Origin: Candidatus Omnitrophota bacterium
Lineage (GTDB): Bacteria > Omnitrophota > Gorgyraeia > 2-02-FULL-51-18
Assembly (NCBI GenBank): GCA_945877765.1
Contig: CAMDWQ010000007.1
Coordinates: 23,024 to 87,023, forward strand
DNA length: 64,000 nt
Reading direction: 5' to 3'
Part shown: positions 476 to 53,707 of the stretch, piece after piece
Numbering within the stretch: position 1 is the first letter of the stretch
Layout: every line of letters begins with the position of its first letter
Program-made: the position numbers and the translations under genes
Notes under the pieces: model-generated
Told to the model about the DNA's origin: nothing
The model's input: the letters and a program-made list of their open reading frames with translations, nothing else
Database searches by the model: none

Positions 476-597
476 TTCCCCTCCTTACGAAGGAGGGGTG
501 GCGCCGAAGGCGACGGGGTGGTTGACGGGTTGTGTTTTATGTGCAAATTCCTACAACCCCTCCGCCTCCGGCACCTCCCCTTTGTAAGGGGAGGAAA
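476..597. repeat. Family A composite palindromic repeat, copy A1
   Basis: Sequence cccctccttacgaaggaggggtgg + cgccgaaggcgacggggtgg ... caacccctccgcctccggcacctcccctttgtaaggggagg. Each half is a hairpin. The same ~125-nt element recurs 8 times in the window. Confidence 0.85.
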
Positions 598-619
598 ATG
601 TTATTAGGATTAAAAACCA

Positions 620-1927
620 ATGAACATCATTTCACTAATCAACAAAATTCCCTTCGGTGAACCCGCCGAAAAAGGCTATTTTCTTTATAAAAATACACCT
701 CAATCCATTTTAAAGAAAATGGAGCGAGATAATTTTATTGGTACGGTGCGGTATGTGGCGGAGCATTCGCCTTTTTATAAAAGAAAATTTGCGGAGCATC
801 ATATTGATGCCTCCAAAGTAAAATCTCCCGAAGACTTGAAGGATTTTTTTACGACGGCTGAGGATATTCGCGCCAATCCTGATGAATTTTTGTGCATGAG
901 GCCGGATACCGCTTATGAGTCGACGGGGACGACATCCAAAAAAACCAAGCGTGTTTATTTTTCCCGCAATGAAGTCCATGAAGCCGGATGGGCGGGAGCT
1001 GTGGGCCTGTGGGGTGTCGGTGTCCGCAAAGAGGACCGCATTGCGAGTGCTTTTGATTATTCGTTTTGGGTCTCTGGGCCGGTGCTCATGGCTTCTTGTC
1101 AGACGCTGGGGTGCTTTCACGTCGAGGCTGGACGCATGGATCCGGATGAGTTTCATGACCGGCTTTTTGATTATAAGATCAGCGTGATCGTCGGGGACCC
1201 CTCTTGGCTTTTGCGTTTTTCCCAGATCGCGGAGAAAAAAGGGACTTGGCCCGTAAAGCTCATGATCGGTGGCGGGGAAAATATGACTGAGGAAACACGC
1301 CGTTACATTGAAAGCGTCTGGAAATGCGATTTTCTTTTAAGCTATGGACAGACAGAAGCGTTTGGCGCTATAGGAATGGAATCTCGTGCAAAAGACGGTT
1401 ATCAACTCAATGAATTTCACAATTTTTTTGAAATTATTGACCGCGATGCTCAAGGGTATGGGGAGCTAGTCTATACGACGGTTAATCGGCGCGTGATGCC
1501 GCTTATTCGGTACAAATCCGGGGATATTACACGTTTTATCGACAAGCCATCAGCGGAAAATTTACCGGGCAGGCGCATTGAGAAACTCAAAGGCCGTGTC
1601 AACGAATGGGTCGCGACAGCAATGGGGAATATAGCGCCCTGGATGTTTGAGCCGATCTTGAGCCCAATTATCGGAATTACTTCCGATTGGCAAATTACTA
1701 TCGAAAAGTCAGGACACTTGGACCGTATGACTGTCACCGCAGAGGCGGAAGCGATTTCAGCCACTGCTTTGCGCGAAAAAATTCTTACGCAGTTTGCGTT
1801 GGTCATGCCCGATGTATGGAAGAATTTTAAAAATGGTTTTTTTGAGATTGACGCACAGGTAGTTCCCAAAAATTCTCTTCGAACTGGACGGAAACTTTTA
1901 CGTATCGTGGATAAAAGGAAATTCTAA
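620..1927 (+). CDS. phenylacetate-CoA ligase (PaaK)/coenzyme F390 synthetase-family adenylate-forming enzyme
   Basis: 435-aa ORF with an AMP-binding-like P-loop (STGTTSKKTKRVYFS) and a YGQTEAFG motif, typical of PaaK-like acyl-CoA ligases. Confidence 0.55.
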   Translation: MNIISLINKIPFGEPAEKGYFLYKNTPQSILKKMERDNFIGTVRYVAEHSPFYKRKFAEHHIDASKVKSPEDLKDFFTTAEDIRANPDEFLCMRPDTAYESTGTTSKKTKRVYFSRNEVHEAGWAGAVGLWGVGVRKEDRIASAFDYSFWVSGPVLMASCQTLGCFHVEAGRMDPDEFHDRLFDYKISVIVGDPSWLLRFSQIAEKKGTWPVKLMIGGGENMTEETRRYIESVWKCDFLLSYGQTEAFGAIGMESRAKDGYQLNEFHNFFEIIDRDAQGYGELVYTTVNRRVMPLIRYKSGDITRFIDKPSAENLPGRRIEKLKGRVNEWVATAMGNIAPWMFEPILSPIIGITSDWQITIEKSGHLDRMTVTAEAEAISATALREKILTQFALVMPDVWKNFKNGFFEIDAQVVPKNSLRTGRKLLRIVDKRKF

Positions 1928-1939
1928 TCCCCTAACCAG

Positions 1940-2932
1940 TCAGGTATTTTTACTGGCGGGTTTTTCCTTAATGAGAGACCAGAGGGTTAGGCCCACCGCG
2001 ATCCAAACAATTTCACGGGCGCGGCGGATGAGTGCAAACGCCAGGCCTGATGCTTGGTTAAAGCCCAACTGCGAGAAGATCAGCATGATGCCGCCTTCTT
2101 GCAGGCCGACGCTTGAAGGGATAAAAAAAGTGACGATGCGTAGAACCTGGATCAGCGATTCCAAAAGCCAGGCTTCGGAAAATCCGATAGGAAGCCCCAT
2201 GAGCCTTCCGACGAAATAAACTTCAAACGCCCCCGCAAACCACGCTAGAAAATTCCAAAATACCGAGAGAAAAAAATTTCTTTTATTGTGCGTGTAAAAT
2301 TTTTTGATATCCTTATCTAATTCGAGAAACTTAGTCTTTTTCTGGTCCGAGTCATGTTTCCACCATTTAAAAATTTCACCCAATTCATGAACTTTTTTAA
2401 AAATCCCCAGATGAAGCCCGCCGATTAAAAGGGCTGCGACAAGACCCAAGACTCCCAAAAAAATAGTCACGCTTTGCCAGAGCACCGGTGTCAGGGGCAT
2501 GGTTTTAAGCGTTGCCAAAATGCCACCGATCACAAAAAGATTCAGCGACACATAAAAGGTGGTGTGAACGATTAAAAGAGACGCGTAACCCTCAGCAAGG
2601 GGAACCCCGTGGCGTCTTTTTAAAAAATCCGCTTTGACAGGTTCGCCGCCCAGCGATGCGGAAAAGGGAATAATTTCGTTTAAAGTTTCGCCGATGATGC
2701 GGATCACGTATAGATCCGTCCAGGGGATGTGTTTGGGCAGGTTTCGGGGGAACGAATACAGCCAACCCAGCGTATTAAACGCGTAAATAAAAGGATAGAC
2801 GAGAAGAACCGGTAGTAGCGGCCACCCGATCCGATGGATATTTTCCCAGATGGCTCCCAGTCCCACTTGGCGGATGGTGAAATACAGAACGTAAAAACCA
2901 AGGCATAAAAGGGCCAGCTTCACCCAGCGCAT
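1940..2932 (-). CDS. integral membrane protein, UPF0104/lysyl-PG-synthase-TM (flippase-like) family
   Basis: Multi-TM hydrophobic ORF. The track ORF extends to 3001, but its first 23 codons overlap uppP; the internal Met (MRWVKLALL) at ~2932 avoids the overlap. Confidence 0.4.
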   Translation of the reverse strand: MRWVKLALLCLGFYVLYFTIRQVGLGAIWENIHRIGWPLLPVLLVYPFIYAFNTLGWLYSFPRNLPKHIPWTDLYVIRIIGETLNEIIPFSASLGGEPVKADFLKRRHGVPLAEGYASLLIVHTTFYVSLNLFVIGGILATLKTMPLTPVLWQSVTIFLGVLGLVAALLIGGLHLGIFKKVHELGEIFKWWKHDSDQKKTKFLELDKDIKKFYTHNKRNFFLSVFWNFLAWFAGAFEVYFVGRLMGLPIGFSEAWLLESLIQVLRIVTFFIPSSVGLQEGGIMLIFSQLGFNQASGLAFALIRRAREIVWIAVGLTLWSLIKEKPASKNT

Positions 2933-2951
2933 CACAAGAATTTCTCCAAAA

Positions 2952-3719
2952 TCAAAGAAAAAACCACAAAAGAACGGCGGCGAAAATCCGGTAGACGCCA
3001 AACACCACTAGATTGAACCGCTGAACAAAGCCGATGAATAATTTGATGCTAAGAATGGCGACTGCAAATGAAATTAGACAGCCCAGCGCCAGAGAGCCCC
3101 ACTCGGCAGAGGTGAATGCGTACGAGCTTTTCATCAAATCCAAAGCCGTCGCGGCTAGAAGCGTGGGCACCGCCAATAGAAATGAGAATTCGACAATCGT
3201 TTTACGTTGGATGCCAAGGCTTAAGCCTCCCAGAATGGTAGCGGCGGAGCGAGATACGCCCGGGATCACGGCAAAGGCCTGAAAAAATCCGATGAGAATC
3301 GCTTTGGGGTAGGGGATACGCGAAACGTCGTCCACAGAGTCCTTTTTTTCACGGTGATTTATTTCCAAGAAAATGAGGATGAAGCCGCCGATAAAAAGGG
3401 TGGCAATGACTACCATGGAATTCCCCAGCAAAAATTTTTTGATAAATTTGTATAGCAAAAAACCAATCACGGCGGTAGGAATGAAGGCGGCGATGATGCG
3501 CTTGACGGATTCAATATCAACGAACAAACGTTTCCAATAAAGAACGATGACGGAAAAAATGGTGCCGGCTTGAATGGCGATAATAAAGCTCTTCAAAAAT
3601 TCAGTCTCGGGAAGTTGGAGGAGGTTGCCTGCCAGAATTAAATGCCCAGTGGAAGAGACCGGAAGAAATTCCGTGATGCCCTCAACGAGGCTTAGAATAA
3701 AGATATGGAATAAGCTCAA
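2952..3719 (-). CDS. uppP: undecaprenyl-diphosphatase
   Basis: N-terminus MSLFHIFILSLVEGITEFLPVSSTGHL and internal PGVSRSAAT motifs are diagnostic of UppP/BacA. Confidence 0.9.
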   Translation of the reverse strand: MSLFHIFILSLVEGITEFLPVSSTGHLILAGNLLQLPETEFLKSFIIAIQAGTIFSVIVLYWKRLFVDIESVKRIIAAFIPTAVIGFLLYKFIKKFLLGNSMVVIATLFIGGFILIFLEINHREKKDSVDDVSRIPYPKAILIGFFQAFAVIPGVSRSAATILGGLSLGIQRKTIVEFSFLLAVPTLLAATALDLMKSSYAFTSAEWGSLALGCLISFAVAILSIKLFIGFVQRFNLVVFGVYRIFAAVLLWFFL

Positions 3720-3803
3720 AAAATACGCCCCTTCATGCGCGTGATTATAGCATAACGGACGAGGGTTGTGAGTGCCCCCTAAATTAGGTAGAATAGGGGA
3801 CTT

Positions 3804-5708
3804 ATGTGCGGCATATTCGGCTACTCAGGCAACAAACAGGCGCAAGGCCTTGTGATCCAGGGTTTGAAACACTTGGAATACAGAGGGTACGATTCCTCAG
3901 GCATTGCGATGCAGACTCATTCCCACAAGATTCTGATTGAAAAAACGCATGGCAAAATCAAAAACCTTGAAGCGACTTTAAAAAATAATCCTTTGTCGGG
4001 GACAACGGCCATCGGCCATACGCGGTGGGCGACCCACGGGATTCCTACTCCTGAAAATGCGCACCCGCACTTAAATGAATCCGATGAATTGGCGGTGGTG
4101 CACAACGGCATCATTGAAAATTATTTTGAATTGAAACAAGCCCTGCAGAAACAGGGTGTGCGTTTCCGGTCCGAGACGGATACTGAAGTCATTGTCCATT
4201 TGGTCGCCAAGTATTACAAAGGCAATCTCGAAGAAGCGGTGCGCCGCACGCTCAAGGATTTAAAGGGGACTTACGCGATTGCGGTCATTTCCTCCAGCGA
4301 ACCGGGAAAAATTGTTGCCGCGAAGATGGACAGCCCGCTAGTCATTGGCTCGACGAAAAAGGAAAGTTATCTAGCCAGCGACATCTCAGCCCTTCTCGAA
4401 CACACCAACCATGTGACATTTATCGAAAATGGCGATGTGGTCACGATGAACCAAGGTAGTTTTTCGATTACCGATATTGCGGGGAAAAAAATTTCACGGC
4501 CGGTGATGAAAATTGACTGGGATATTACGCAAGCCAAAAAGGGCGGTTACCAGCATTTCATGCTCAAGGAGATTTTTGAGCAGCCCGGAATTTTGACGGC
4601 TATTTTAAAAGAGCGAATTCGCGGGGGTGCCATTTATTTTGATGAGCTTAAAATTACGGCAGCGCAGTTTAAAAAGATTAAGCGGATTTTTATTATTGCT
4701 TGCGGCACGGCATACCATGCGGGCTTGACTGCCAAATATATTTTAGAGGACTTAGCCGGTATCCCGGTTTCCATTGATACCTCCAGCGAGTTTCGTTACC
4801 GTGATCCAAAAGTGGATAAAAGTACGTTGGTCATTGTTGTTTCGCAGAGCGGCGAAACGGCTGATACGCTGGCGGGTTTGAGGGAGGCCAAGGCGAAGGG
4901 CGCTATGACACTGGCGATCTGCAATGTGCTGGCAAGTTCTATCGCCCGCGAGGCTAAGGGAGTCATTTATACGCACGCGGGACCTGAAATCGCGGTGGCT
5001 TCGACCAAGGCATTTACCGCACAGCTGACGGTGTTAAGCCTTTTTGCGTTTTACCTAGGCGCTTTGTTCAAAACAATAAGCCCTAAAAAGGAAAAAGCGC
5101 TCTTAAAAGAGCTTTTGCTGACCCCTCACCGTATCCAGAAAATCCTGGATGGTTACAAAAAAGAAGAAGCCACCTGGAAGAAGAATGTGCATAACTTCAA
5201 CATCCATTACCACACCCAGCTTGAAAAATATTTTTCTGCCAAAAATCACGAACGCAAGCGCTCACCCAATGGACTTTTTTTATATTTGGGGCGCAACATC
5301 AATTATCCCATCGCTCTGGAAGGCGCTTTAAAACTTAAAGAAATTGCTTACATCCCAGCGGAGGGCTACCCGGCAGGAGAGATGAAGCATGGCCCGATTG
5401 CGCTGATTGATGAAAATCCCTGGGTGATATGCCTGGTGCCTGAATCTAAAACTTATGACAAGATGATTTCCAATATTCAGGAAATTCGCGCGCGCGGCGG
5501 GCGCATTATTCCGATTGTGACCGAGGGGGATAAGAAGATAGAGCGTCTGAATCCTGTGTTTACGATTGAAGTCCCCAAAACACCTGAGATTTTCTCGCCA
5601 CTCCTGACGGTCATTCCACTTCAGCTTTTTGCGTATTTGGTGGCTTTGGAATTTGGAGAAGATATTGATCAGCCGCGCAACTTGGCGAAATCGGTGACGG
5701 TGGAATAA
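3804..5708 (+). CDS. glmS: glutamine--fructose-6-phosphate aminotransferase (isomerizing)
   Basis: MCGIFGY Ntn-glutaminase start; two SIS domains; C-terminal ...VTVE. Confidence 0.95.
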   Translation: MCGIFGYSGNKQAQGLVIQGLKHLEYRGYDSSGIAMQTHSHKILIEKTHGKIKNLEATLKNNPLSGTTAIGHTRWATHGIPTPENAHPHLNESDELAVVHNGIIENYFELKQALQKQGVRFRSETDTEVIVHLVAKYYKGNLEEAVRRTLKDLKGTYAIAVISSSEPGKIVAAKMDSPLVIGSTKKESYLASDISALLEHTNHVTFIENGDVVTMNQGSFSITDIAGKKISRPVMKIDWDITQAKKGGYQHFMLKEIFEQPGILTAILKERIRGGAIYFDELKITAAQFKKIKRIFIIACGTAYHAGLTAKYILEDLAGIPVSIDTSSEFRYRDPKVDKSTLVIVVSQSGETADTLAGLREAKAKGAMTLAICNVLASSIAREAKGVIYTHAGPEIAVASTKAFTAQLTVLSLFAFYLGALFKTISPKKEKALLKELLLTPHRIQKILDGYKKEEATWKKNVHNFNIHYHTQLEKYFSAKNHERKRSPNGLFLYLGRNINYPIALEGALKLKEIAYIPAEGYPAGEMKHGPIALIDENPWVICLVPESKTYDKMISNIQEIRARGGRIIPIVTEGDKKIERLNPVFTIEVPKTPEIFSPLLTVIPLQLFAYLVALEFGEDIDQPRNLAKSVTVE

Positions 5709-5713
5709 TGTTA

Positions 5714-5845
5714 TTTCCCCTCCTTTCGAAGGAGGGGTGGTTGCGAAGCAACCGGGGTGGTTGAAGCTCTATTGTCCATGTACACATGTGTAAACCCCCA
5801 CAACCCCTCCGCCTTCGGCACCTCCCCTTCGTAAGGGGAGGAAAA
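5714..5845. repeat. Family A repeat, copy A2
   Basis: tttcccctcctttcgaaggaggggtgg ... caacccctccgccttcggcacctccccttcgtaaggggagg. Fills the glmS-rsmI intergenic space from stop codon to RBS. Confidence 0.85.
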
Positions 5846-5870
5846 CACGTTAATAGGAAAGTAAATTTCA

Positions 5871-6617
5871 ATGAGTGGAATTTTATATTTAGTGGCGACG
5901 CCGATTGGTAATCTTGGCGATCTTTCTATTCGCGCGATTGAGACACTCAAGAAAGTGGATCTCATCGCATGCGAAGATACCCGCCACTCCAAAGTGCTTT
6001 TGACGCATTATGGCATCAACAAGCCGTTGGTGAGCTACTTTGATTTTTCGGAGAAGCAGAAGACGCCCTATTTGGTGGAAAAAATGAAAAATGGCGCTAG
6101 TATCGCGCTCATTTCTGATGCGGGGACGCCGGGGATTGCGGATCCGGGGTATCGGCTGATTCGGGAGGCGATAGCTCAAGGGGTACGTGTGGAGTCTTTG
6201 CCGGGAGCGGCGGCGTTTTTGACGGCGCTTACGGTGTCGGGACTGCCTCCGGACCGATTTATTTTTGAGGGATTTTTTCCGGTCAAGGACGGCCAGAAAA
6301 AGAAACTTCTTTTGTCGCTGGCTCAAGAAGAAAGAACCGTTATTTTTTACGAATCACCGCATCGGCTGCTTAAGACACTCGAGGCTATTCGTGAAACGCT
6401 GGGCGATATACAACTAGTGGTTGCGCGGGAGCTTACAAAGAAATTTGAGGAAGTGTTGAGGGGACCCGTTAGCGGCGCTATTGAGCATTTCTCCTCGAAA
6501 AAGATATTGGGAGAATTTGTGATATTATGGTCTGCGAAACCTAATTTGTCATTCCCGCGAAAGCGGGAATCTGCGTCCAGTGATGATCCTCGCTTCCGCG
6601 AGGATGACAAGGGTTAA
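5871..6617 (+). CDS. rsmI: 16S rRNA (cytidine1402-2'-O)-methyltransferase
   Basis: MSGILYLVATPIGNLGDLSIRAIETLKKVDLIACEDTRHS tetrapyrrole-methylase fold. The last ~22 codons are encoded by a Family C repeat. Confidence 0.85.
   Translation: MSGILYLVATPIGNLGDLSIRAIETLKKVDLIACEDTRHSKVLLTHYGINKPLVSYFDFSEKQKTPYLVEKMKNGASIALISDAGTPGIADPGYRLIREAIAQGVRVESLPGAAAFLTALTVSGLPPDRFIFEGFFPVKDGQKKKLLLSLAQEERTVIFYESPHRLLKTLEAIRETLGDIQLVVARELTKKFEEVLRGPVSGAIEHFSSKKILGEFVILWSAKPNLSFPRKRESASSDDPRFREDDKG
6548..6612. repeat. Family C double-hairpin repeat, copy C1
   Basis: gtcattcccgcgaaagcgggaat + gatcctcgcttccgcgaggatgac. Overlaps the rsmI 3' end. Confidence 0.8.
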
Positions 6618-6619
6618 CA

Positions 6620-7048
6620 ATGAAAGATATCCATTTTCGCGTCTGGCATCTCCAAGAAAAAAAGATGTATTACCGCGGGTATCAGAAGTTTTTGCACGTG
6701 CTTCTTTGCGAGGATGACCACGGCGAAAATGAGGGAAAGGGGACGCCGGCCCGACGCGCCTCATATGGTGATTGTATTTTTTTGGAGAGCACAGGGCTTT
6801 TTGATCGGCGCCAGAAGGAAATTTTTGAAGGGGATATCGTCCGGGTTGGCTACAAAGACCGGGAGTTTGAGGGGATTGTTGAGGAAATTCCCGATACGTT
6901 TGGCGCGGCCAAGGTGCATCCGCTGCACAATATTTTAAAGAAAAATGGAATTTTGGGTTATCCAGAAAATCTGAATTTAGAAGTGCTTGGCAATGAATAC
7001 GAGCAGAATGTGTCGTCCCCGAAATCTTTTATCGGGGATCAAACCTGA
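6620..7048 (+). CDS. YopX-family phage-derived protein
   Basis: MKDIHFRVWHLQEKKMYY ... STGLFDRRQKEIFEGDIV ... EVLGNEYEQN matches the YopX (PF09643) pattern (F-R-A-W-D...M-Y, STGL-D-N-G-IYEGDI, EVIGNIYEN). The last ~11 codons lie in repeat B1. Confidence 0.5.
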   Translation: MKDIHFRVWHLQEKKMYYRGYQKFLHVLLCEDDHGENEGKGTPARRASYGDCIFLESTGLFDRRQKEIFEGDIVRVGYKDREFEGIVEEIPDTFGAAKVHPLHNILKKNGILGYPENLNLEVLGNEYEQNVSSPKSFIGDQT

Positions 7049-7083
7049 GTTTGATTCCCGATTAAAGCATTCGGGAATGACGA
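7012..7083. repeat. Family B double-hairpin repeat, copy B1 (inverted orientation)
   Basis: gtcgtccccgaaatcttttatcggggat caaacctga gtttgattcccgattaaagcattcgggaatgacg. Confidence 0.8.
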
Positions 7084-9850: not shown

Positions 9851-9997
9851 TGTCATTCCCGAAAGTATTTGTCGGGAATCAAACCTGTACATGATCCCCG
9901 ATTAAAGATCTCGGGGATGACACTGGGTGGTGTTCGGGGATGACACTGGGTGGTGTTCGGGGATGACACTGGGTGGTGTTCAAGGATGACAAATAGG
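9851..9997. repeat. Family B repeat copy B2 followed by a 23-nt tandem repeat (~3.5 units)
   Basis: gtcattcccgaaagtatttgtcgggaatcaaacctgtacatgatccccgattaaagatctcggggatgacac, then (ggggatgacactgggtggtgttc)x3 + degenerate aaggatgacaaatagg. Confidence 0.85.
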
Positions 9998-10900: not shown

Positions 10901-11979
10901 GTCCTCTGAAATACCGAATGCCTGCCGAGTGGGAAACCCACGAAGCAACCTGGCTGACATGGCCCACCAATAAAATTACTTGGCCCGGCACGCTTTTAAA
11001 GCGTGTTGAAGAGATCTACTTAGAAATGATGCGGGGGCTCCTTCCTGGTGAGAAGGTCCAGCTTCTCGTCGATGATGTCAAAACAGGCAAACGTGTTCTT
11101 GGGCTTCTTGCCGCCAAAAAAATTCCGTCTACCAATCTTATCTTGCATGAAATTAAAACGGTGGATGTCTGGATTCGGGATTATGGACCTATTTTTGTAA
11201 AAAAGAGGATTGAGGATAGAGGATTGAGGATTGAGAAGAATCCAAAAAAATATTCAGAAATTGCGTTCACCAAATGGATTTTTAACGGCTGGGGCGGAAA
11301 GTATGCGGATCTGGCACGCGATACGAAGGTGGTCGACAAGAGCCGCTATTTAAAAAATTTTAATCGTTTTGATCCCGGCATTATCATGGAGGGTGGTTCC
11401 ATCGACGTTAATGGCTTGGGGACACTTCTTACGACCGAGCAGTGTCTTTTAAATAAAAATCGCAACCCAAAATTGTCGCGTCGGCAGATTGAAAAATATC
11501 TTAAGCTATATCTAGGAATCAAAAAAACAATATGGCTTAAAGAAGGTATCGAAGCCGATGACACGGACGGCCATGTCGATGACATCACGCGCTTTGCGGG
11601 GCCTCGGACGATTTTGACGGCCGTAGAATGCGACCCATTAGATAAAAATCATGCTTATCTTGAAGAAAATCTCCACCTATTAAAAGCCTCCACCGACCAG
11701 GACGGGAAAAAATTTAATATTATCGAATTGCCGATGCCCGGGATTGTGGGCCCGGCGCGTACGGATGCGGGTCATCACCGGCTTCCGGCAAGCTATGCCA
11801 ATTTTTACATCGGAAATCATGCGGTACTCGTCCCGATCTACAGCCACCGCAATGACAAGACTGCTCTTAAAATAATCCGCAAAGCGTTCCCCGCAAAAAA
11901 AGTAATCGGGATTGAGTGTTCGGCGTTGGTTTACGGCCTTGGTTCAATCCACTGCGTCACCCAGCAACAACCGCGATGA
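10897..11979 (+). CDS. aguA: agmatine deiminase
   Basis: MPAEWETHEATWLTWP start; porphyromonas-type peptidylarginine/agmatine deiminase fold with C-terminal catalytic Cys (GSIHCVTQQ). Confidence 0.85.
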   Translation: MSPLKYRMPAEWETHEATWLTWPTNKITWPGTLLKRVEEIYLEMMRGLLPGEKVQLLVDDVKTGKRVLGLLAAKKIPSTNLILHEIKTVDVWIRDYGPIFVKKRIEDRGLRIEKNPKKYSEIAFTKWIFNGWGGKYADLARDTKVVDKSRYLKNFNRFDPGIIMEGGSIDVNGLGTLLTTEQCLLNKNRNPKLSRRQIEKYLKLYLGIKKTIWLKEGIEADDTDGHVDDITRFAGPRTILTAVECDPLDKNHAYLEENLHLLKASTDQDGKKFNIIELPMPGIVGPARTDAGHHRLPASYANFYIGNHAVLVPIYSHRNDKTALKIIRKAFPAKKVIGIECSALVYGLGSIHCVTQQQPR

Positions 11980-12863
11980 AAACAAAGCCTTACCGCATCG
12001 TTTTTTATTACCTCTTGATTCTAATCCGCAGTTTCTTTTATTTATTTCCCTACCAGGTAGGTATTTGGGTGGGCAGGTTGTTGGGCCGTGTTGTTTTTTA
12101 CCTTCTTGCGAAAGAACGAAACAAGACGATTAGTAACCTGAGATTGGCATTCGGTGAGCAACCGTCTGATCAAGAGCTTCGCCGTATCGCGCGGGCGGTG
12201 TTTGAAAATTATGGCATGATTGCCGCGGAGACCCAGTTGGTTGGCAAAATCATTCCCTGTCTTGATCGATGGGTGGATATTGAGGGTAAGGAAATACTGG
12301 ATGAGGCCTTGAAAAAAGGCCATGGGGTCATTGGCCTGATCGCGCACTTCGGTGACTGGGAGTTGATGGGCGGGTACTTGGCAATGAAAGGCTATCCTAT
12401 GGTGGCTGTCGCACGGAAAATTTATTATGAAAAATACAACCAGCTTTTAATTCAGGCGCGTGAAAGAATGAGCATTCGAGTAATCTATCGCGATCGTTCT
12501 CCCAGGGAAATGCTGCGCACCCTAAAAAATAACGATGTGCTTGTCATCGCGGCCGACCAGGATGTAGATTCTTTAGACGGCGTGTTTGTTAATTTTTTTA
12601 GCCGACCCGCTTACACGCCAGTTGCGCCGGTAAGGTTTTCAATGGCGGCGGGGGCACCGATTATTCCTGCTTTTATTATACGAGAAGGTTTTAAGCACCG
12701 GATCATCATTGAAAAACCCATCGAACTTACATTTACGGGAAACAAAGAAACGGATTTAGTGGCCAACACCCAAAAATGGGTGTCATTGCAGGAACAGTAT
12801 ATCCGACAATATCCCCATCTATGGGTGTGGAATCATAAGCGGTGGAGAACTAAAAGTGTTTAA
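11976..12863 (+). CDS. lysophospholipid/lipid A (Kdo2-lipid IVA) acyltransferase, LpxL/HtrB family
   Basis: N-terminal TM, HX4D-type acyltransferase region (LIAHFGDWEL), C-terminal YPHLWVWNHKRWRTK. Start chosen at ATG overlapping the aguA stop (ATGA); the track ORF from 11916 would overlap aguA. Confidence 0.65.
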   Translation: MKTKPYRIVFYYLLILIRSFFYLFPYQVGIWVGRLLGRVVFYLLAKERNKTISNLRLAFGEQPSDQELRRIARAVFENYGMIAAETQLVGKIIPCLDRWVDIEGKEILDEALKKGHGVIGLIAHFGDWELMGGYLAMKGYPMVAVARKIYYEKYNQLLIQARERMSIRVIYRDRSPREMLRTLKNNDVLVIAADQDVDSLDGVFVNFFSRPAYTPVAPVRFSMAAGAPIIPAFIIREGFKHRIIIEKPIELTFTGNKETDLVANTQKWVSLQEQYIRQYPHLWVWNHKRWRTKSV

Positions 12864-12972
12864 CCACCCCGTCGCCTTCAGCGCCACCCCTCCTTCGTAA
12901 GGAGGGGAAAGAGAGCTCAATTTCCTCCCCTTACGAAGGGGAGGTGCCGAAGGCGGAGGGGTTGTAGGGTTT
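12864..12972. repeat. Family A repeat, copy A3 (reverse orientation)
   Basis: ccaccccgtcgccttcagcgccacccctccttcgtaaggagggg ... cctccccttacgaaggggaggtgccgaaggcggaggggttgtagg. Confidence 0.85.
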
Positions 12973-19011: not shown

Positions 19012-19221
19012 ATGTCACAGGTACTTGTATCCACCAAATATCAGGTCGTGATTCCCAAGGATGTCCGAAGGCAATTGGAAATACATCCCGGGCAGAAGAT
19101 GAGTTGTATTGCGATTAATCGGGCGATTCATTTGGTGCCGGTTAAGCCGATGAGTCAGTCAAGGGGGATTGCCAAAGGGATTTCTCTTGTTGGATATCGA
19201 GAGAAAAAGGACCGCATGTGA
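19012..19221 (+). CDS. vapB: type II antitoxin, AbrB/MazE/SpoVT-type (VapB-like)
   Basis: 69-aa MSQVLVSTKYQVVIPKDVRRQLEIHPGQKM swapped-hairpin DNA-binding domain; 4-nt overlap with the downstream PIN gene. Confidence 0.7.
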   Translation: MSQVLVSTKYQVVIPKDVRRQLEIHPGQKMSCIAINRAIHLVPVKPMSQSRGIAKGISLVGYREKKDRM

Positions 19222-36183: not shown

Positions 36184-36187
36184 TTAG

Positions 36188-36260
36188 TGTCATCCCCGAA
36201 CGTTTTAATCGGGGATCATCCATAGGTTTGATTCCCGATAAAAAATCTCGGGAATGACAT
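36188..36260. repeat. Family B repeat, copy B6
   Basis: gtcatccccgaacgttttaatcggggatcatccataggtttgattcccgataaaaaatctcgggaatgacat. Confidence 0.85.
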
Positions 36261-36289: not shown

Positions 36290-36385
36290 ATGCCTTGCGG
36301 TAAAAAAAGAAAACGTCATAAGATGGCAGTACATAAAAGAAAAAAACGCCGTCGTCGCGATAGACATAAGAAGAACTCGAAGTAA
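36290..36385 (+). CDS. unannotated 31-aa highly basic ORF, candidate bS22-like small ribosomal protein
   Basis: AGGAG SD 7 nt upstream of ATG. MPCGKKRKRHKMAVHKRKKRRRRDRHKKNSK (21/31 K/R/H) resembles bS22/mS38 KRRKRM-KKKHRK peptides. Below the ORF-track size cutoff. Confidence 0.4.
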   Translation: MPCGKKRKRHKMAVHKRKKRRRRDRHKKNSK

Positions 36386-36387
36386 CC

Positions 36388-36512
36388 CTTTCCTCCCCTT
36401 TCGAAGGGGAGGTGCCGAAGGCGGAGGGGTTGTAAGGTGATACATAGGCTGTTGTACTGCGTCAACCACCCCGTCGCTTCGGCGACACCCCTCCTTCGTA
36501 AGGAGGGGAAAA
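36388..36512. repeat. Family A repeat, copy A6 (reverse orientation)
   Basis: cctcccctttcgaaggggaggtgccgaaggcggaggggttgtaagg ... ccaccccgtcgcttcggcgacacccctccttcgtaaggagggg. Confidence 0.85.
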
Positions 36513-36576
36513 TTGCAAGGCGTGACACTTTTACGAGTGAATGTTCGTCTAAATGAAATAGATCAAGGAGCCTAAA

Positions 36577-40191: not shown

Positions 40192-40200
40192 CCATTTTTT

Positions 40201-40271
40201 TGCCCTGTGGTGTAACGGTAGCACACGGCCCTTTGGAGGCCAGAGTCATGGTTCGAATCCATGCGGGGCAG
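40201..40271 (+). tRNA. tRNA-Gln (anticodon UUG)
   Basis: Cloverleaf folds by hand: acceptor TGCCCTG/CGGGGCA with U1-A72 and discriminator G73 (Gln identity), U8, D-stem GTGT/GCAC with G18G19, anticodon loop C-U-UUG-G-A, T-arm CATGG-TTCGAAT-CCATG. No encoded CCA. Confidence 0.8.
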
Positions 40272-40341
40272 AATACTGAATGGCTTGAGTCGAATTCTGT
40301 TTGGCAGTTATTGACAGGGTTTCGTTGTTTAGGGTGTTTAT

Positions 40342-41361
40342 ATGAAAAAAATAATCCGACCAATTGAATACGGTAATTTTCTAAATGAAGTTAAGGCTCG
40401 TATTCGAGCTGCCCAATACGAAGCTTTAAAAAAGGTTAACAAAGAGCTTATTGGCCTTTATTGGGACATTGGGAAGATGATAATTATTCGCCAAAAGAAG
40501 CATGAGTGGGGCAAAGCAATTGTAGAAAACCTCGCGGCGGATTTACAAGCAGAATTCCCCGGCGTTCGCGGGTATTCGGCGCAAAATTTGTGGTATATGA
40601 GGCAATTTTATCAAGAATATGCGGGCAACAAGAATCTCCAACCACTGGTTGGAGAAATCAGTTGGGCTCATCATTTGGTTATTATGAGCAAAATAAAGAA
40701 TCCGTTGGAGCGGGAATTCTATATTCGTATGACGAAGCGCATGGGCTGGACTAAAAATGTTCTCATCCATCAGATTGAGAGCAAGACATATGAAAAAACT
40801 TTTACAAATCAGACCAATTTTAAGAAAACACTTCCCGCTAAAATAGGTGATCAAGCAAAGCTGGCAGTCAAAGATGAGTACACATTCGATTTTCTTGAAT
40901 TAGGCGAAGAACACAGTGAGATGGAGCTTGAACGGTCGCTGGTCGCCAAAGTGAACCATTTTCTTATTGAAATGGGCGGAGCGTTCGCTTTTATGGGAAA
41001 CCAGTTCCGGCTCGACATAGACGGGAACGAATATTTCATTGATATTCTTCTCTATCATCGCAGATTGAGGTGTCTCATTGCTGTGGAATTGAAGGTCGGA
41101 GAATTCAAGCCGGAGTTTGTTGGGAAGATGCAGTTTTATCTGGCGGCGTTGGACAGCAAAGTGAAAGCCAAATATGAGAACCCATCAATCGGTATCATTG
41201 TCTGTAAGGAGAAGAAAAGGACCATTGTGGAATACGCACTCAAAGAAAGCAAAAAACCGATAGCGGTAGCACAGTATAAAATTATGACAAAACTGCCGAA
41301 AGCTTTGAGGAAAGAACTTCCTGCGCCGGAACAGATCCAAAAGTTAATGGAAAGCATTTAA
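40342..41361 (+). CDS. YhcG/DUF1016-family PDDEXK nuclease
   Basis: 339 aa; the C-terminal IDILLYHRRLRCLIAVELKVGEFKPEFVGKMQFY matches the DUF1016 restriction-endonuclease-like core (D...ELK...QxxxY). Confidence 0.65.
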   Translation: MKKIIRPIEYGNFLNEVKARIRAAQYEALKKVNKELIGLYWDIGKMIIIRQKKHEWGKAIVENLAADLQAEFPGVRGYSAQNLWYMRQFYQEYAGNKNLQPLVGEISWAHHLVIMSKIKNPLEREFYIRMTKRMGWTKNVLIHQIESKTYEKTFTNQTNFKKTLPAKIGDQAKLAVKDEYTFDFLELGEEHSEMELERSLVAKVNHFLIEMGGAFAFMGNQFRLDIDGNEYFIDILLYHRRLRCLIAVELKVGEFKPEFVGKMQFYLAALDSKVKAKYENPSIGIIVCKEKKRTIVEYALKESKKPIAVAQYKIMTKLPKALRKELPAPEQIQKLMESI

Positions 41362-42657: not shown

Positions 42658-43939
42658 AGCAGCCATTATCTTGGCGGCGGGAAAAGGGACACGGCTTCGG
42701 TCAATACTTCCTAAAGCGCTGCATCCGATTTGTGGAAAACCGATGCTCGGGTATTTGGTGGAGCGTGCGCGCGTTGCCGGTTGTGAAAAAATTGTGGTGG
42801 TTGGCGGATACAAGATCGAATTGGTGCGGGAATATTTGAAGTCACTGGGACTGGGCGCTTCTTTGGTTTGCGTCGAGCAGAAAGAGCAGCTGGGAAGCGG
42901 ACATGCGGTGCAGCAGGCGGCACGGGCGCTTAAAAATTTCCAAGGCGCGGTGTTTGTATTTTATTGCGATACGCCCCTTATTAGTCAGGCGACCGTCAAA
43001 GAGCTTTTTAAAAATTATTCGTCCGAAAAAACTGATTGCACGCTCTTATCGGTGGAATTAAAACAGCCTTTTGGTTATGGGCGGGTCCAGCGAGGACCCA
43101 GCGCGGAAGTGGTGAAGATCATCGAGGAGAACGACGCGACTAGTGATGAGAAAAATATCCGTGAAATCAATGTCGGTTGTTACGTATTTTCAGCGGTGCG
43201 CCTTTTTGAGGGGCTTAAAAAAATCAAAAAGAACCCGCAGAAAAAAGAATACTACCTGACGGACATCGTTGAGATTTTTTCTCAAAGCGGCAAAGTCGGT
43301 GCGGTGATCACGGCGGACGCGAAGGAAGTTTTGGGAGTTAATTCTCAAAAAGATCTCGCCCGGGTCGAAGAAATTGCGCAAAAAAGGATTTTGGACGGCT
43401 GGATGGACAAGGGAGTTCGCATCCGTTGCCCTAAAACCGTGACCATTGACGCGGACGTGAGGATAGGGCAAGATACTACGGTTATGCCCCATACGGTCCT
43501 TGAGCAAGGCTCGGTCATAGGCCGGGGCTGTAAGCTGGGGCCTTTCGCGCGTATCCGTGGCAACTCCCGGGTTGGCAATCACGTCGTGGTCGGAAATTTT
43601 GTTGAACTGGTACGCACTACCCTTGGGGATCATACCCAAGTGAAGCATCTTTCCTATTTGGGAGATGCCTCGGTTGGCGCCTACGTCAATATTGGCGCGG
43701 GGACGATTACCGCCAATTATGACGGGAAGAATAAACACCAGACGGTGATTAGGGATCGAGCGAGTGTTGGTAGCGGCACGATTTTGGTGGCGCCGGTGGT
43801 GGTAGGGCGCGCGGCGGTGACCGGAGCGGGTGCGGTGGTGACCAGGCGCAATAATGTGCCCGATCGCGCCTTGGTAGTGGGAGTGCCTGCGCGGATTATT
43901 ACTAAACGTCATCTTAAACGTCATCCCCGAAATCTTTAA
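42650..43939 (+). CDS. glmU: bifunctional UDP-N-acetylglucosamine pyrophosphorylase / glucosamine-1-phosphate N-acetyltransferase
   Basis: TTG start giving [16 protein letters not shown], overlapping the clpX stop; C-terminal left-handed beta-helix hexapeptides. The last ~8 codons (RHPRNL) lie in repeat B7. Confidence 0.88.
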
Positions 43940-44040
43940 TCGGGGATCATGTTAAGGTTTGATTCCCGATAAATATTTTCGGGAATGACAGGGTTAGAAA
44001 ATTAAGGTTTGATTCCCGATAAGTAATTTCGGGAATGACA
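43919..44040. repeat. Family B repeat, copy B7 (1.5 copies)
   Basis: cgtcatccccgaaatctttaatcggggatcatgttaaggtttgattcccgataaatattttcgggaatgacagg ... ggtttgattcccgataagtaatttcgggaatgacagg. Confidence 0.85.
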
Positions 44041-45022: not shown

Positions 45023-45095
45023 GTCATTCCCGAAATCTTTAATCGGGAATCAAACTCAAGACGTGATCCCCGATTAAAGATTTCGGGGATGACAG
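45023..45095. repeat. Family B repeat, copy B8
   Basis: gtcattcccgaaatctttaatcgggaatcaaactcaagacgtgatccccgattaaagatttcggggatgacag. Confidence 0.85.
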
Positions 45096-45843: not shown

Positions 45844-45927
45844 TGTCATCCCCGAAATTTTTTATCGGGGATCATACCTGAGTTTGATTCCCGATTAGAG
45901 ATTTCGGGAATGACATGGGAATGACAG
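45844..45927. repeat. Family B repeat, copy B9
   Basis: gtcatccccgaaattttttatcggggatcatacctgagtttgattcccgattagagatttcgggaatgacatgggaatgacag. Confidence 0.85.
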
Positions 45928-47708: not shown

Positions 47709-47715
47709 GATTCAG

Positions 47716-47765
47716 ACCTTACAACCCCTCTGCCTTCGGCACCTCCCCTTCGAAAGGGGAGGAAA
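47716..47765. repeat. Family A half-repeat, copy A7
   Basis: ccttacaacccctctgccttcggcacctccccttcgaaaggggagg (second hairpin module only). Confidence 0.75.
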
Positions 47766-47783
47766 AATTGGGCTGGTTAATTC

Positions 47784-51977: not shown

Positions 51978-52006
51978 ACGGTTCTAAAATTAATCACTTT
52001 AAGGAG

Positions 52007-52543
52007 ATGATGGTAGCCATGAAGAAAATGACATTAGTTTTTGCCGCATTGTTAATGGTAACTGGTTTTACAGTTGCAGGCGCCTCTTCTGCCTACGCGG
52101 CTGAGCAAAAAATAGGCTATGTGGATTTGGCCCACATTTTTGATGACTATCAAAAAACAAAAGATTTTGACAAGACCTTAGAAGGTAAGGGAAATGCCAA
52201 GCAGGGCGAGCGCGATATAATGGTCAATGATGTCAAAAAAATGAGAGACGAAGCTGAGCTGTTATCGGCCAAAGCCAAGGATGATAAACAGGCGGCGATT
52301 GACGAAAAAATAAAAACACTGCAGGAATTTGACCGCAGTACGCGCGACGCTTTAAGAAAAGAACGCGATACGATGGTTCAGGATATTTTAAAAGAAATCG
52401 AAGTCGTGATTCAAAATTTTGGAAAGAGCCAGGGGTATTCCTTTATTTTCAACGATCGCGTTTTGGTGTATAAAGGCGAGACGAGCGATCTGTCGGCGCA
52501 AGTGATTAAAGCATTGAATGATTCCTACACCAAGAAAAAATAA
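52007..52543 (+). CDS. skp: OmpH/Skp-family periplasmic chaperone
   Basis: Signal peptide + coiled-coil rich; OmpH-like [13 protein letters not shown]; conserved bamA-skp-lpxD order. Confidence 0.8.
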
Positions 52544-53576
52544 TGAGGCACCCAAGAGTCTAAACTTAGGTGAAGTCGCCGCGCTGGTTGGCGGTGAACT
52601 CGTTGGCGGAAATGAGCTTTATCCGGTAACAGGTGTTGCAGGGATCAAAGAAGCCCAAAAGGGAGATATTACGTTCCTCGTGAACGATAAATATCTCCCT
52701 TTTTTACTTGAGACGCAGGCGGCGGCGGTGATTGTGCCGCTCAGTGTGTCGACCGCTCAAATTCCCCTAATTCGGACAGCAAATCCCTCTCAAGCTTTTT
52801 CCCGCGTGGCGCTTCACTTTTCACCTACTCCGGTTAGCTTTGATTTGAGTATTCATTCAACAGCGGTGATTGAAAAAAATACTGTCATCGGACACGGGGT
52901 CCATGTGGGCCCACATGCAGTAGTTGGTGAAAATACTCGCATCGGCCGTCGCTCGGTTGTGGCGGCGAATGTATTTCTGGGCCCCAATTGCGTGATCGGG
53001 GAGGATGTGTTGATTTACCCGAATGTTGTGATTCGTGAAAATACTCAAGTAGGCGATCGTACCATTATTCATAGCGGTGCCGTCATAGGAAGCGATGGGT
53101 ATGGTTATGAAACCAATGAAGGCAACCATGAAAAGATTCCTCACACCGGTTTTGTGCTCATCGAAGAGGATGTTGAAATTGGGGCTAATACTTGTATCGA
53201 CCGCGGGCGCTTTCAGAAAACTTGGATTCAAAAGGGAAGTAAGATTGATAATTTGGTTCAAATTGCTCACAACGTCATCATTGGCCCTAACAGTTTGATT
53301 GTCTCTCAAGCGGGTATTTCTGGTTCAACCGAGTTGGGTAAAAATGTCATTGTTGCTGGGCAGGCGGGTCTGGTGGGACATATTACGGTCGGTGATTTTG
53401 CCATTATTGGCGCAGGCGCTGGAGTGACTAAGCCGGTACCTGCAAAAGCGATTGTGCTGGGGAGTCCCGCAAAACCAATCAGTGAGCAAAAAAGACTATT
53501 TGCGTTTATTGCGAGGCTTCCGGATCTTTTTAAGGATGTGGCGGAATTGAAGAAAAAGTTAAAAAAGGATGAATAA
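52518..53576 (+). CDS. lpxD: UDP-3-O-(3-hydroxyacyl)glucosamine N-acyltransferase
   Basis: [15 protein letters not shown]-domain, extended hexapeptide left-handed beta-helix. The start at 52518 overlaps the skp 3' end by 26 nt. Confidence 0.88.
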
Positions 53577-53584
53577 CATAACCA

Positions 53585-53707
53585 TTTCCCCTCCTTTCGA
53601 AGGAGGGGTGGCGCCGAAGGCGACGGGGTGGTTGAACACGCTACGTTTCATACATAAACCCCCGCAACCCCTCCGCCTCCGGCACCTCCCCTTCGAAAGG
53701 GGAGGAA
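53585..53707. repeat. Family A repeat, copy A8
   Basis: ttcccctcctttcgaaggaggggtggcgccgaaggcgacggggtgg...caacccctccgcctccggcacctccccttcgaaaggggagg. The element ends 2 nt before the lpxC ATG, so its terminal GGAGG acts as the SD. Confidence 0.85.

Follow-up and report, generated by a model that had tools for sequence, protein, structure and literature searches.

What is the GC-rich palindromic repeat that recurs between the genes of this Omnitrophota contig, and by what means was it placed there? Few non-coding features of bacterial genomes are as common as REP-type repeats, and RAYT is, to our knowledge, the only established mechanism for their spread. A sequence-only reading of the window (the whole 64-kb stretch of DNA that was analysed) had proposed dispersed, mobile-looking, structured palindromes of the REP, BIME or MITE type, in eight copies with two hairpin modules each. 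The copies, their arms, their neighbours and their relatives in other genomes were therefore analysed here.

Copies in the window

The palindromic family proves to be real, as both an nhmmer profile of the full copies and a covariance model of one arm recover all eight copies (Table 1); beyond six full and two partial copies, no match to the profile was found in the window. E-values of the six full copies were 5e-43 to 2e-38 with a profile built from these same six. Eight is the correct number of sites, but they comprise six full copies, one permuted copy (A3) and one half copy (A7), giving 15 arms of two types, 7 alpha and 8 beta, by the covariance model of one arm in the 64-kb window. The two hairpin modules are present in full copies, but the modular nature of the arms and their division into two types had been missed; A7, already listed as a half copy, is one arm. 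A3, described as reversed, is not a plain reversal: the arms are permuted, which brings their outer hairpins face to face, 10 nt apart, and turns their feet outward. In A3, the alpha foot includes the TAA stop codon (12861-12863) of an lpxL-like gene and reads TTAACC, versus TCAACC in others.

All eight copies are intergenic, in agreement with the proposed location between a stop codon and the next start codon; seven begin 0-8 nt downstream of the preceding stop codon, and in A3 that codon is overlapped by the element. An end at or near the downstream ribosome-binding site was confirmed for A8, which abuts the lpxC start, but the other copies stop 7-33 nt short of the next start (A4 about 10 nt), and about 160 nt separate A3 from the earliest possible start codon of the ORF that follows. 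Both orientations occur, as had been noted. GC content is 56-62% for whole elements and 58-68% for arms (about 65% had been suggested), against 43-50% in the host. The element has polarity, since the left arm (CCCCTCC) and the right arm (CCTCCCC) are not inverted copies of each other, and the copies score 127-142 bits forward versus 45-54 bits in reverse with nhmmer. A copy of a different repeat family (36174-36258) adjoins A6.

Table 1. Copies of the palindromic element in the window, with their arms and neighbouring genes (cm, covariance model)
Copy	Position	Strand	Arms	nhmmer match	Evidence	Neighbours (upstream / downstream)
A1, gene-less	475-597	+	alpha 475-525, variable centre, beta 553-597	472-601 (+)	nhmmer E = 4.6e-43; cm arm scores 83.4 and 39.2 bits	aminotransferase gene (stop 473) / acyl-CoA ligase-like gene (start 620)
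A2	5714-5845	+	alpha 5714-5764, beta 5800-5844	5712-5847 (+)	nhmmer, cm	glmS (stop 5708) / rsmI (start 5871)
A3, permuted	12860-12968		alpha 12860-12910 (minus), beta 12921-12968 (plus)	12852-12972		
A4	21956-22075	+	alpha 21956-22006, beta 22031-22075	21953-22078 (+)	nhmmer, cm	purB (stop 21954) / purS (start 22087/22090)
A5	22334-22455	-	beta 22335-22382, alpha 22406-22455	22330-22457 (-)	nhmmer, cm	purS (stop 22329) / purQ (start 22491)
A6	36388-36512	-	beta 36389-36433, alpha 36462-36511	36385-36514 (-)	nhmmer, cm	spacer hisG to ftsH-like
A7	47716-47765	+	lone beta arm, right-arm orientation	47713-47767	nhmmer, cm	rpsR (stop 47708) / rplI (start 47784)
A8	53585-53708	+	alpha 53585-53635, beta 53664-53708	53583-53713 (+)	nhmmer, cm	lpxD (stop 53576) / lpxC (ATG 53709)

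Arm structure and pairing

Arms are about 50 nt long. Their outer hairpin has 9 bp (CCCCTCC/GGAGGGG or CCTCCCC/GGGGAGG), their inner hairpin covaries, and their foot is G-rich (GGGGTGGTT or GGAGGGGTT); TTTCC stands at one end and GGTTGA or GGGTTGT at the other. The inner hairpin is optional, and its sequence is free while its pairing is kept; in the alpha arm of A2, for example, compensatory changes have put TTGC/GCAA in place of CGCC/GGCG. The two inner hairpins of one element are unlike each other (e.g., in L154 and L001), their lengths and sequences varying independently. Across the window copies, the arms are near-identical and the centres divergent, and the element carries terminal inverted repeats (TTTCCCCTCC...GGGGAGGAAA).

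The hairpins are under selection for pairing. In alignments fitted to the covariance model's own structure, standard pairs occupy 97-99% of the cells, 12 of the 15 base pairs have changes on both sides, and compensated cells number 109 and 188 versus 17 and 46 in shuffles, none of 500 shuffles being as high; in controls that shifted the partner column by 1-3 positions, pairing was found in just 52-69% of cells. This covariation check had been suggested along with the sequence-only reading, and it supports the pairing. G-T pairs make up only about 1% of cells; on the strand from outer hairpin to foot, G-T versus A-C counts are 6 versus 1 in left arms and 5 versus 0 in right arms, both small. 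The predicted folds of the copies are very stable (z-scores -5 to -7), and for a doublet, one long hairpin and separate local hairpins are similar in predicted energy, the covariation supporting the latter.

Relation to gene expression

Of the functions ascribed to the element, that of a terminator was not borne out, because no hairpin with a downstream U tract was found on the transcribed strand of the copies (A runs or TGG follow instead), the copies sit within the pur and lpx operons, and the sole terminator-like match in 21500-23000 is antisense to the genes. A dedicated 5'-UTR structure is also disfavoured, given that both orientations occur and that purS retains its own GAGG downstream of A4. 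On the other hand, the terminal GGAGG of A8 (53701-53705) is indeed the sole available Shine-Dalgarno sequence for lpxC, with AAA alone before the ATG. The outer hairpin itself is a Shine-Dalgarno/anti-Shine-Dalgarno duplex, CCUCCUUA pairing with UAAGGAGG. The small ORFs across the copies are artefacts, as had been supposed, in which hairpins are read as PPLRKGR-like peptides.

Insertion and expansion in Omnitrophota

The window copies are recent insertions in an expanding family, because close relatives have empty sites and almost no copies. The purB-purS junction that holds A4 is reduced to 12 nt in L228 and L229 and to 1 nt in L232; at the purS-purQ site of A5 there are 0 nt in L228 and L229, overlapping genes in L230 and 7 nt in L232; and at the lpxD-lpxC site of A8 the two genes overlap (ATGA) in L235 and are 5 nt apart in L236. 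These three empty sites support the mobile character that had been proposed. An independent insertion was detected in the same purB-purS spacer of L230. Arm density points the same way, with 15 arms in 74 kb here versus 0 in about 60 kb and 1 in 20 kb of relatives. A search for target-site duplications had also been suggested, and none was significant when the two flanks of each of the eight copies were compared (p = 0.22-0.98); no target motif was found at these copies either.

A gene-bearing form in other genomes

The family is not restricted to the window. An exact 23-base right-arm pattern occurs in at least 107 stretches of other genomes, where about 0.02 would be expected by chance, and arms are present in more than 100 loci whose labels cover at least eight phyla (Cyanobacteria, Patescibacteria, Bacteroidota, Omnitrophota, and Proteobacteria among them), although these are labels of metagenome-assembled genomes and can be wrong. 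A covariance model (R1) built solely from five window alpha arms scored the window arms at 39-83 bits and the arms beside DUF559 genes at 19-64 bits, and found 191 arms in loci picked solely through DUF559 protein similarity. Inward-facing arms stand on both sides of 36 of 80 metagenomic DUF559 genes and on one side of 23 more; as the queries came from arm-pattern loci, these 59 of 80 represent one DUF559 subfamily rather than the whole Pfam family. Within 250 nt of a DUF559 gene, arm density is 3.7 per kb versus 0.056 per kb elsewhere, a 67-fold enrichment, and an independent inverted-repeat test found strong flanking repeats at 32 of 66 DUF559 loci. The window arms are homologous to those around DUF559 genes. 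Loci on viral contigs show the same layout with different sequences.

Gaps between inward-facing arms are either 12-51 nt or 417-527 nt, and a DUF559 gene lies in every long gap. The gene-bearing elements (438-595 bp) have exact terminal inverted repeats and enclose a single promoter-less gene, always at the palindrome centre, that encodes a DUF559 protein of 110-130 aa, a predicted Vsr-like PD-(D/E)XK endonuclease. The enclosed proteins match Pfam PF04480 (E = 1e-27 to 1e-33), and the ORFs are intact with a common motif, KFRRQHS..DF..E.DG..H. The cassettes are wedged between neighbouring genes, with the start codon 3-5 nt past the left foot in L172, L164, and L179 and the stop codon within the right arm in L162, L154, and L149; in L164 and L179, a beta arm is paired with an alpha arm, like in the window copies. 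DUF559, which we take to be a large orphan family (E. coli YcjD, PDB 3HRL), was present in only 4 of the 107 arm-selected loci, with more than one copy at only one locus, and several gene-less arms lie beside one DUF559 gene in L146, L156, and L176. In about 1.4 Mb of loci, DUF559 is the only gene that recurs between arms or next to them, and no DUF559 gene was found in 74 kb of the source genome (the window and a further 10 kb). With Rfam, no family reached the gathering score in the window except tRNA, A8 gave just sub-threshold matches to generic microRNA-precursor hairpins, and 20 related loci had no match; no description of the hairpin-arm element or its link to DUF559 was found in Rfam or in the literature searched. 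The modular arms of two types, the spread over many phyla and the full-length form enclosing an endonuclease gene had no place in the sequence-only reading.

Origin of the family

The family in the window is probably, though with appreciable reserve, the non-autonomous form, lacking the gene, of a hairpin-armed DUF559 element that is widespread, in a REPIN/RAYT-like partnership with a PD-(D/E)XK nuclease. The two forms would be related much as a MITE is to an IS, or a REPIN to its RAYT. A DUF559 nuclease encoded by a gene-bearing copy elsewhere in the genome would recognise and cut the folded arms, host repair or recombination might then copy gene-less units to new sites, and insertions would survive only if they fall in the few bases that separate a stop codon from the ribosome-binding site after it. 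Insertions may be tolerated inside operons because hairpins without a U tract do not terminate transcription, and because the downstream end, in either orientation, is AAGGAGGGGAAA or AAGGGGAGGAAA, a potential Shine-Dalgarno sequence; at lpxC, the end of A8 would have to serve as one. Here we infer that the arms are mobilised by DUF559, and a cognate nuclease is assumed for this Omnitrophota organism. A PD-(D/E)XK hydrolase alone is incapable of strand transfer, and we are aware of no case in which a Vsr-like enzyme mobilises DNA. Vsr and Caulobacter VsrA, very-short-patch repair nucleases of the same protein superfamily as the enclosed DUF559, differ in being described as repair enzymes; VsrA, the one studied DUF559-domain protein in the literature searched, is described as a mismatch-repair-type nuclease (PMC12907096). 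No mention of flanking hairpin arms was found in that paper or in the others retrieved. Other possible causes of the association between arms and DUF559 are homing into palindromes that already existed, hitch-hiking, and regulation of the DUF559 gene by its own flanks.

Homing is an unlikely explanation. DUF559 would then be a free-standing homing endonuclease gene that invades pre-existing palindromes, and gene-less copies would be targets or empty alleles spread otherwise. DUF559 belongs to the same Pfam clan as Vsr and the Vsr-like homing endonuclease fold (PMC3424549), it weakly matches a homing endonuclease model of PADLOC, its gene always occupies the palindrome centre, and small promoter-less nuclease genes held tightly between host genes are also typical of T4 seg and mob and of the Vsr-like I-Bth0305I. 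However, those genes have neither structured terminal inverted repeats nor abundant gene-less miniatures, whereas here the gene-less copies are far more numerous and stay unconverted beside gene-bearing ones, and their spread to new operon sites would be left unexplained. It is quite unlikely that the copies are host-useful RNA structures (mRNA stabilisers, processing sites, or translation-coupling modules of Shine-Dalgarno/anti-Shine-Dalgarno hairpins) kept by selection, the arms being untranslated regions of the DUF559 gene. The duplex in the outer hairpin, the constancy of arms with variable centres, the Shine-Dalgarno supplied to lpxC, the stable predicted folds and the left arm of the gene-bearing form, which must be transcribed as a leader, all favour such a role, but close relatives lack copies at the same junctions, both orientations and single or permuted arms occur, G-T pairs are rare, and the G-T strand bias, in small counts, runs from outer hairpin to foot in left and right arms alike, which does not fit one sense transcript.

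That these are ordinary REPs or REPINs moved by a RAYT encoded elsewhere, with DUF559 an unrelated neighbour, appears very unlikely, although the copies are extragenic, GC-rich, palindromic, locally dense and arranged as inverted doublets (15 arms in 64 kb, all intergenic, with six inverted doublets). REP palindromes carry a conserved GTAG or CGTC tag at one end (PMC3733652), which is not conserved in the window arms, where just two of the eight beta arms have GTAG after the foot. In addition, no RAYT/Y1 transposase (PF01797) or other transposase was present among the Pfam matches of called genes in the window and 10 kb more, only DUF559 recurs at the arms in about 1.4 Mb of loci, and its arm enrichment would be a coincidence. 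It is highly improbable that the copies are classical MITEs, descended from a DDE-type insertion sequence that shares their terminal inverted repeats. Small size, many copies, insertion polymorphism and terminal inverted repeats (TTTCC...GGAAA) agree with them, and the Correia, ERIC, and Nezha elements are likewise non-autonomous, intergenic and co-transcribed with their neighbours, with ends in common with a longer gene-bearing element; but here no target-site duplication is significant at any of the eight copies, inward-facing arms are never separated by a transposase-sized gap (0.8-1.5 kb) in any locus, single and permuted arms occur, and the parent-like elements code for a nuclease of about 120 aa alone, with no DDE transposase.

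Comparison with REPIN/RAYT and wider meaning

The DUF559 elements resemble the REPIN/RAYT system in their short GC-rich extragenic palindromes, single or as inverted doublets around a short spacer, in a small nuclease gene between two inverted repeats, in gene-less units that far outnumber the gene, and in lineage-specific expansion. They differ in that the enclosed gene encodes a putative PD-(D/E)XK (DUF559, Vsr-like) hydrolase whereas RAYT is an HUH/Y1 transposase, in that the arm has two hairpins and a foot, with covariation favouring local hairpins over one long REPIN hairpin, and in that arms of nearly the same sequence are found in genomes labelled as at least eight phyla. Two modular arm types, alternating orientation, permuted or single arms and tandem arrays (A3, A7, L162) also recall the BIMEs of E. 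coli, which are REP mosaics; however, there is no sequence relation and no known IHF or gyrase site here, and the arms are tied to a nuclease gene.

It is conceivable, and offered only tentatively, that armed DUF559 cassettes and their gene-less miniatures form an unrecognised mobile or semi-domesticated class in bacteria of at least eight phyla as labelled, that is, a second nuclease-repeat partnership independent of REPIN-RAYT and driven by a Vsr-like PD-(D/E)XK nuclease. If a Vsr-like hydrolase maintains or spreads such a second cross-phylum family, the orphan family DUF559 would gain a biological role and a function with a defined, testable DNA substrate, and an explanation would be at hand for a whole class of spurious ORFs, and of intergenic palindromes so far unexplained, in metagenome-assembled genomes. 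Such a family would also illustrate entry into tightly coupled operons without polar damage, through hairpins that are no terminators and through a Shine-Dalgarno sequence brought along at each end. In practice, the arm model offers a way to mask the elements and to flag recent insertions in Omnitrophota, Patescibacteria, and cyanobacterial genomes.

Structure and position of the Family A copies

The GC-rich palindromic modules assigned to Family A by the sequence-only reading are present in the sequence where it had placed them. A profile made from the six complete copies and run over the window recovered these six (E = 5e-43 to 2e-38) together with two partial copies and no further match. 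Whole copies are 109-132 nt long, have a GC content of 56-62% in a host of 43-50%, and are built of an alpha arm (TTTCCCCTCC-loop-GGAGGGG-TGG-hairpin-GGGGTGGTTGA) and a beta arm (TTTCCTCCCC-loop-GGGGAGG-TG-CCGAAGG-C-GGAGGGGTTGT). The two hairpin modules described for each copy are real; the left and right halves, though related, are not inverted copies of each other, so that the element is polar, and this polarity is also seen in the profile scores (127-142 bits forward vs 45-54 bits reverse). A3, previously taken as a reverse copy, fits that description only in part, having permuted arms whose outer hairpins abut and whose feet point outward, and A7 is a lone beta arm. The module is a single arm rather than a 125-nt unit.

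Coordinates of repeats, inserted genes and related loci (L-numbers, loci fetched from other genomes)
Feature	Sequence	Position
A1	window	475-597
A2	window	5714-5845
A3	window	12860-12968
A4	window	21956-22075
A5	window	22334-22455
A6	window	36388-36512
A7	window	47716-47765
A8	window	53585-53708
Second repeat family	window	7017-7076, 9857-9916, 26852-26911, 30412-30432, 33501-33603, 36194-36253, 43925-44034, 45028-45088, 45850-45909
Third composite repeat	window	6544-6622, 23583-23650, 29381-29459
Tandem 23-nt units	window	9911-9991
Hexokinase-domain gene	window	13178-18919
MazE/PIN pair	window	~19012-19604
Gp49/HTH pair	window	32345-32991
tRNA-Gln	window	40200-40272
DUF1016_N/YhcG_C gene	window	40342-41361
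purB-purS insertion	L230	9666-9764
Tandem 49-nt units	L162	10344-10528
Element with extended inverted repeat	L194	9907-10426
ycjD region	L234 (E. coli K-12, NC_000913.3)	11230-11860

The genes around the copies are housekeeping genes, all on the + strand (glmS and rsmI; an lpxL-like gene; purB, purS and purQ; hisG and an ftsH-like gene; rpsR and rplI; lpxD and lpxC). Seven copies begin 0-8 nt after the upstream stop codon, which A3 overlaps, and the downstream start follows after 0-33 nt; A3 is the exception, with ~160 nt to the next ORF's first candidate start. Among the genes called in the window and a further 10 kb upstream, no Pfam hit to a transposase or to DUF559 was found, and the 74 kb read from the source genome contained no DUF559 gene. 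The best-matching proteins that carry an organism name belong to Candidatus Omnitrophica/Omnitrophota, which is thus the likely host.

Distribution across genomes

Family A is not confined to the window: at least 107 stretches elsewhere match the exact 23-base beta-arm pattern, with ~0.02 expected by chance. By genome label, the matches listed include Cyanobacteria (many, isolates among them), Patescibacteria, Bacteroidota, Oscillospiraceae, Puniceicoccaceae, Omnitrophica, Thermoanaerobaculia, Rhodothermales, and Gamma- and Alphaproteobacteria, and full copies with two arms are present in several of these groups. A blastn search of A1 against 72,556 plasmids gave no match, and Rfam returned only generic long hairpins, with no match to Family A at gathering or E-value thresholds.

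Folding and covariation of the arms

For single copies, a long hairpin and a series of local hairpins are about equally stable by prediction (-56 to -76 kcal/mol, z-scores -5 to -7); the comparative data favour the local hairpins. A covariance model of the arm (9-bp outer and 6-bp inner hairpin) was made from five real alpha arms of the window, and 150 arms from genomes found via the DNA pattern and 150 from loci found via DUF559 were aligned. In these alignments, both fitted to the model's own structure, standard pairs occupied 99.0% (DNA-pattern set) and 97.3% (DUF559 set) of cells, changes on both sides were seen at 12 of 15 base pairs, and 109 and 188 compensated cells were observed where shuffling gave 17 and 46, the observed value being reached in none of 500 shuffles. 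Pairing dropped to 52-69% of cells when the partner column was slid by 1-3 positions. The structure proposed for the aligned copies is hence supported by these compensated cells, and the covariation argues strongly that the arm hairpins have been selected for pairing.

The inner hairpin varies freely even inside the window (CGCC/GGCG in A1, TTGC/GCAA in A2), and some lineages lack it while others have one of 40-50 nt, whereas the outer stem is conserved in sequence. The two inner hairpins of one element may be unlike each other (as at L001 and L154), which argues against pairing between left and right arms.

Association with DUF559 genes

Clustering of ORFs near arms revealed one recurrent small protein, identified as Pfam DUF559 (PF04480, E = 1e-27 to 1e-33), a Vsr-like PD-(D/E)XK nuclease family whose nearest solved relative, 3HRL, is annotated just as 'endonuclease-like protein'. 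At one locus (L051), two inverted beta arms enclose the DUF559 gene exactly. Further DUF559 loci, 34 on viral contigs and 80 metagenomic, were picked on protein similarity alone. The inspected GC-rich, alphaproteobacteria-like examples of the viral set share one layout (outer hairpin, inner hairpin, foot, ATG...stop, foot, inner hairpin, outer hairpin) with quite different sequences. In the metagenomic set, which represents one subfamily with seeds from loci already bearing arms, strong flanking inverted repeats occurred at 32 of 66 testable loci, and the window-derived arm model detected inward-facing arms flanking 36 of the 80 genes on both sides and another 23 on a single side. Within 250 nt of a DUF559 gene, arms occurred at 3.7 per kb vs 0.056 per kb elsewhere, a 67-fold enrichment. 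Inward-facing arms were separated by either 12-51 nt, in gene-less copies, or 417-527 nt, where a DUF559 gene lay between them. Taken together, these comparisons make a firm case that the arms of Family A are homologous to those flanking DUF559 genes.

The gene-bearing form is 438-595 bp long and has exact terminal inverted repeats, such as TTTCCCCTCC...GGAGGGGAAA or GCTCCCC...GGGGAGC. The DUF559 ORFs of such elements are intact and conserved. Their start codon can be just 3-5 nt past the left foot (L172, L164, L179), leaving no room for a promoter and making the G-rich foot the sole candidate Shine-Dalgarno sequence. The stop codon is often within the right arm (L162, L154, L149), and the upstream neighbour is co-oriented with DUF559 in 12 of 17 cases. 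Two elements (L164 and L179) consist of a beta arm and an alpha arm, the same combination as in the window, and at L164 the neighbours are 10 and 11 nt away, so that it is wedged like the gene-less copies of the window. At L194, L206, L164 and L179 the inverted repeat runs 7-15 nt past the arms (e.g., GTCGGTAGTATCTCC...GGAGATACTACCGAC), and such elements may be nested in a further palindrome. At L162, the DUF559 gene is followed on its 3' side by four tandem 49-nt units, each a whole arm without inner hairpin (TTAACCACCCCTAACCCCTCC-loop-GGAGGGGAAA), so that arms can form arrays.

In E. coli K-12, the start of the DUF559 gene ycjD is overlapped by a perfect 16-bp hairpin (CACCTCATTCTGACAA...TTGTCAGAATGAGGTG), and its stop is accompanied by a C-run/G-run hairpin and then a duplicate of ~40 nt of its own 3' end. 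The upstream hairpin is a different one, and ycjD does not share the architecture of the gene-bearing elements; its flanks may be a remnant of a related one.

DUF559 ranks with the gene families in which flanking inverted repeats are most enriched (PMC9881135). Caulobacter has a DUF559 protein, VsrA, which DNA damage induces and which itself brings about an SOS response; flanking palindromes are not mentioned in that study (PMC12907096). In the viral contigs L111-L133, a LexA-box-like GAAC-N7-GAAC motif, shared with a divergent gene, lies ~60-100 nt upstream of the left arm of DUF559, which is consistent with the reported induction of vsrA. A link between DUF559 and palindromic repeats was not described in the full-text literature searched, which did not include subscription journals, so it may have been described before; six arm sub-sequences appeared in papers only as unrelated primers.

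Insertion and expansion

The gene junctions occupied by A4, A5 and A8 are nearly closed in relatives: the purB-purS and purS-purQ gaps are 12 and 0 nt in L228 and L229 (PurQ 91% identical) and 1 and 7 nt in L232, while in relatives with LpxC 79% and 65% identical, lpxD runs into lpxC (ATGA) or is separated from it by 5 nt. These three copies are therefore insertions into tightly coupled junctions. The purB-purS junction of L230 has its own Family A insertion, with arms arranged otherwise and a beta arm beginning right after the stop codon; this is an independent hit. The window lineage has 15 arms in 74 kb vs 0 in ~60 kb and 1 in 20 kb in relatives. These comparisons show the Family A copies to be recent insertions of an expanding family. 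No significant target-site duplication was found at the copies; a 37-nt likeness of the purS 3' end to the stretch past A5 was not significant. In a 93%-identical relative (L226), compared over 1-5207 of the window, the first ~2 kb are identical, A1 included, and ~10% divergence begins at glmS, a mosaic pattern that suggests recent recombination.

The ancestral spacers were just 0-12 nt, and survival is the best explanation for copies lying directly behind stop codons. The proposed terminator role is rejected, as none of the hairpins has a U tract behind it. The terminal GGAGG of A8 is the sole possible Shine-Dalgarno sequence of lpxC, whereas purS retains its own downstream of A4. Either orientation of a copy ends in an AAGGAGG-like sequence, and this, together with the lack of a U tract, would account for the tolerance of copies within operons.

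Possible mechanism and alternative explanations

The REP/MITE-type reading was right in kind, the repeats being dispersed, structured and inserted, and the best classification is as a REP/REPIN-type family with a PD-(D/E)XK nuclease as its partner. The REP-associated tyrosine transposase (RAYT) is thought to act on REPINs; we infer that the DUF559 nuclease would likewise act on the arms in trans, and host repair would then complete the copying. A simple hydrolase is an unusual candidate for the movement of DNA. Integron attC sites were rejected as an identity, as a correctly ordered RYYYAAC/GTTRRRY core and an integrase are both lacking and housekeeping genes lie on either side; so were IS200/IS605-type ends, whose hairpins are in direct, not inverted, orientation.

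Gene-less arms far outnumber DUF559 genes, which occur at only 4 of 107 arm-selected loci among the matches listed (more than one copy at just one locus). The genes might have homed into pre-existing palindromes, a history to which we give little probability. That the elements act as RNA structures seems slightly less probable still: G-T pairs make up ~1% of cells, and on the strand that leads from the outer hairpin towards the foot they number 6 vs 1 A-C in left arms and 5 vs 0 in right arms, their presence on the same strand in both being a weak hint against one sense transcript as the folded species. Regulation of the DUF559 gene through its own flanks ranks below both.

Other repeats and insertions in the window

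A second repeat family, unrelated to Family A, comprises 19 hairpins of the form GTCAT(C/T)CCCGA-N-TCGGG(G/A)AT, mostly in doublets of ~85 nt and all intergenic, one doublet adjoining A6. Three and a half tandem copies of a 23-nt unit (TCGGGGATGACACTGGGTGGTGT) run on from one of its hairpins. The third composite repeat has three copies with the hairpins GTCATTCCCGCG-N-CGCGGGAATC and GATCCTCGC-N-GCGAGGATGAC.

Just upstream of clpX, tRNA-Gln is followed by a gene with DUF1016_N/YhcG_C Pfam hits, another PD-(D/E)XK nuclease family; this gene lacks Family A arms and might be a small insertion beside the tRNA. A gene of ~1,913 aa with hexokinase-domain Pfam hits and a MazE/PIN toxin-antitoxin pair form a block between the lpxL-like gene and purB, with A3 at its left edge; in L232 purB comes straight after the lpxL-like gene. 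A Gp49/HTH pair resembling HigB/HigA lies between glyA and nrdR, which are directly adjacent in L230 and L232.
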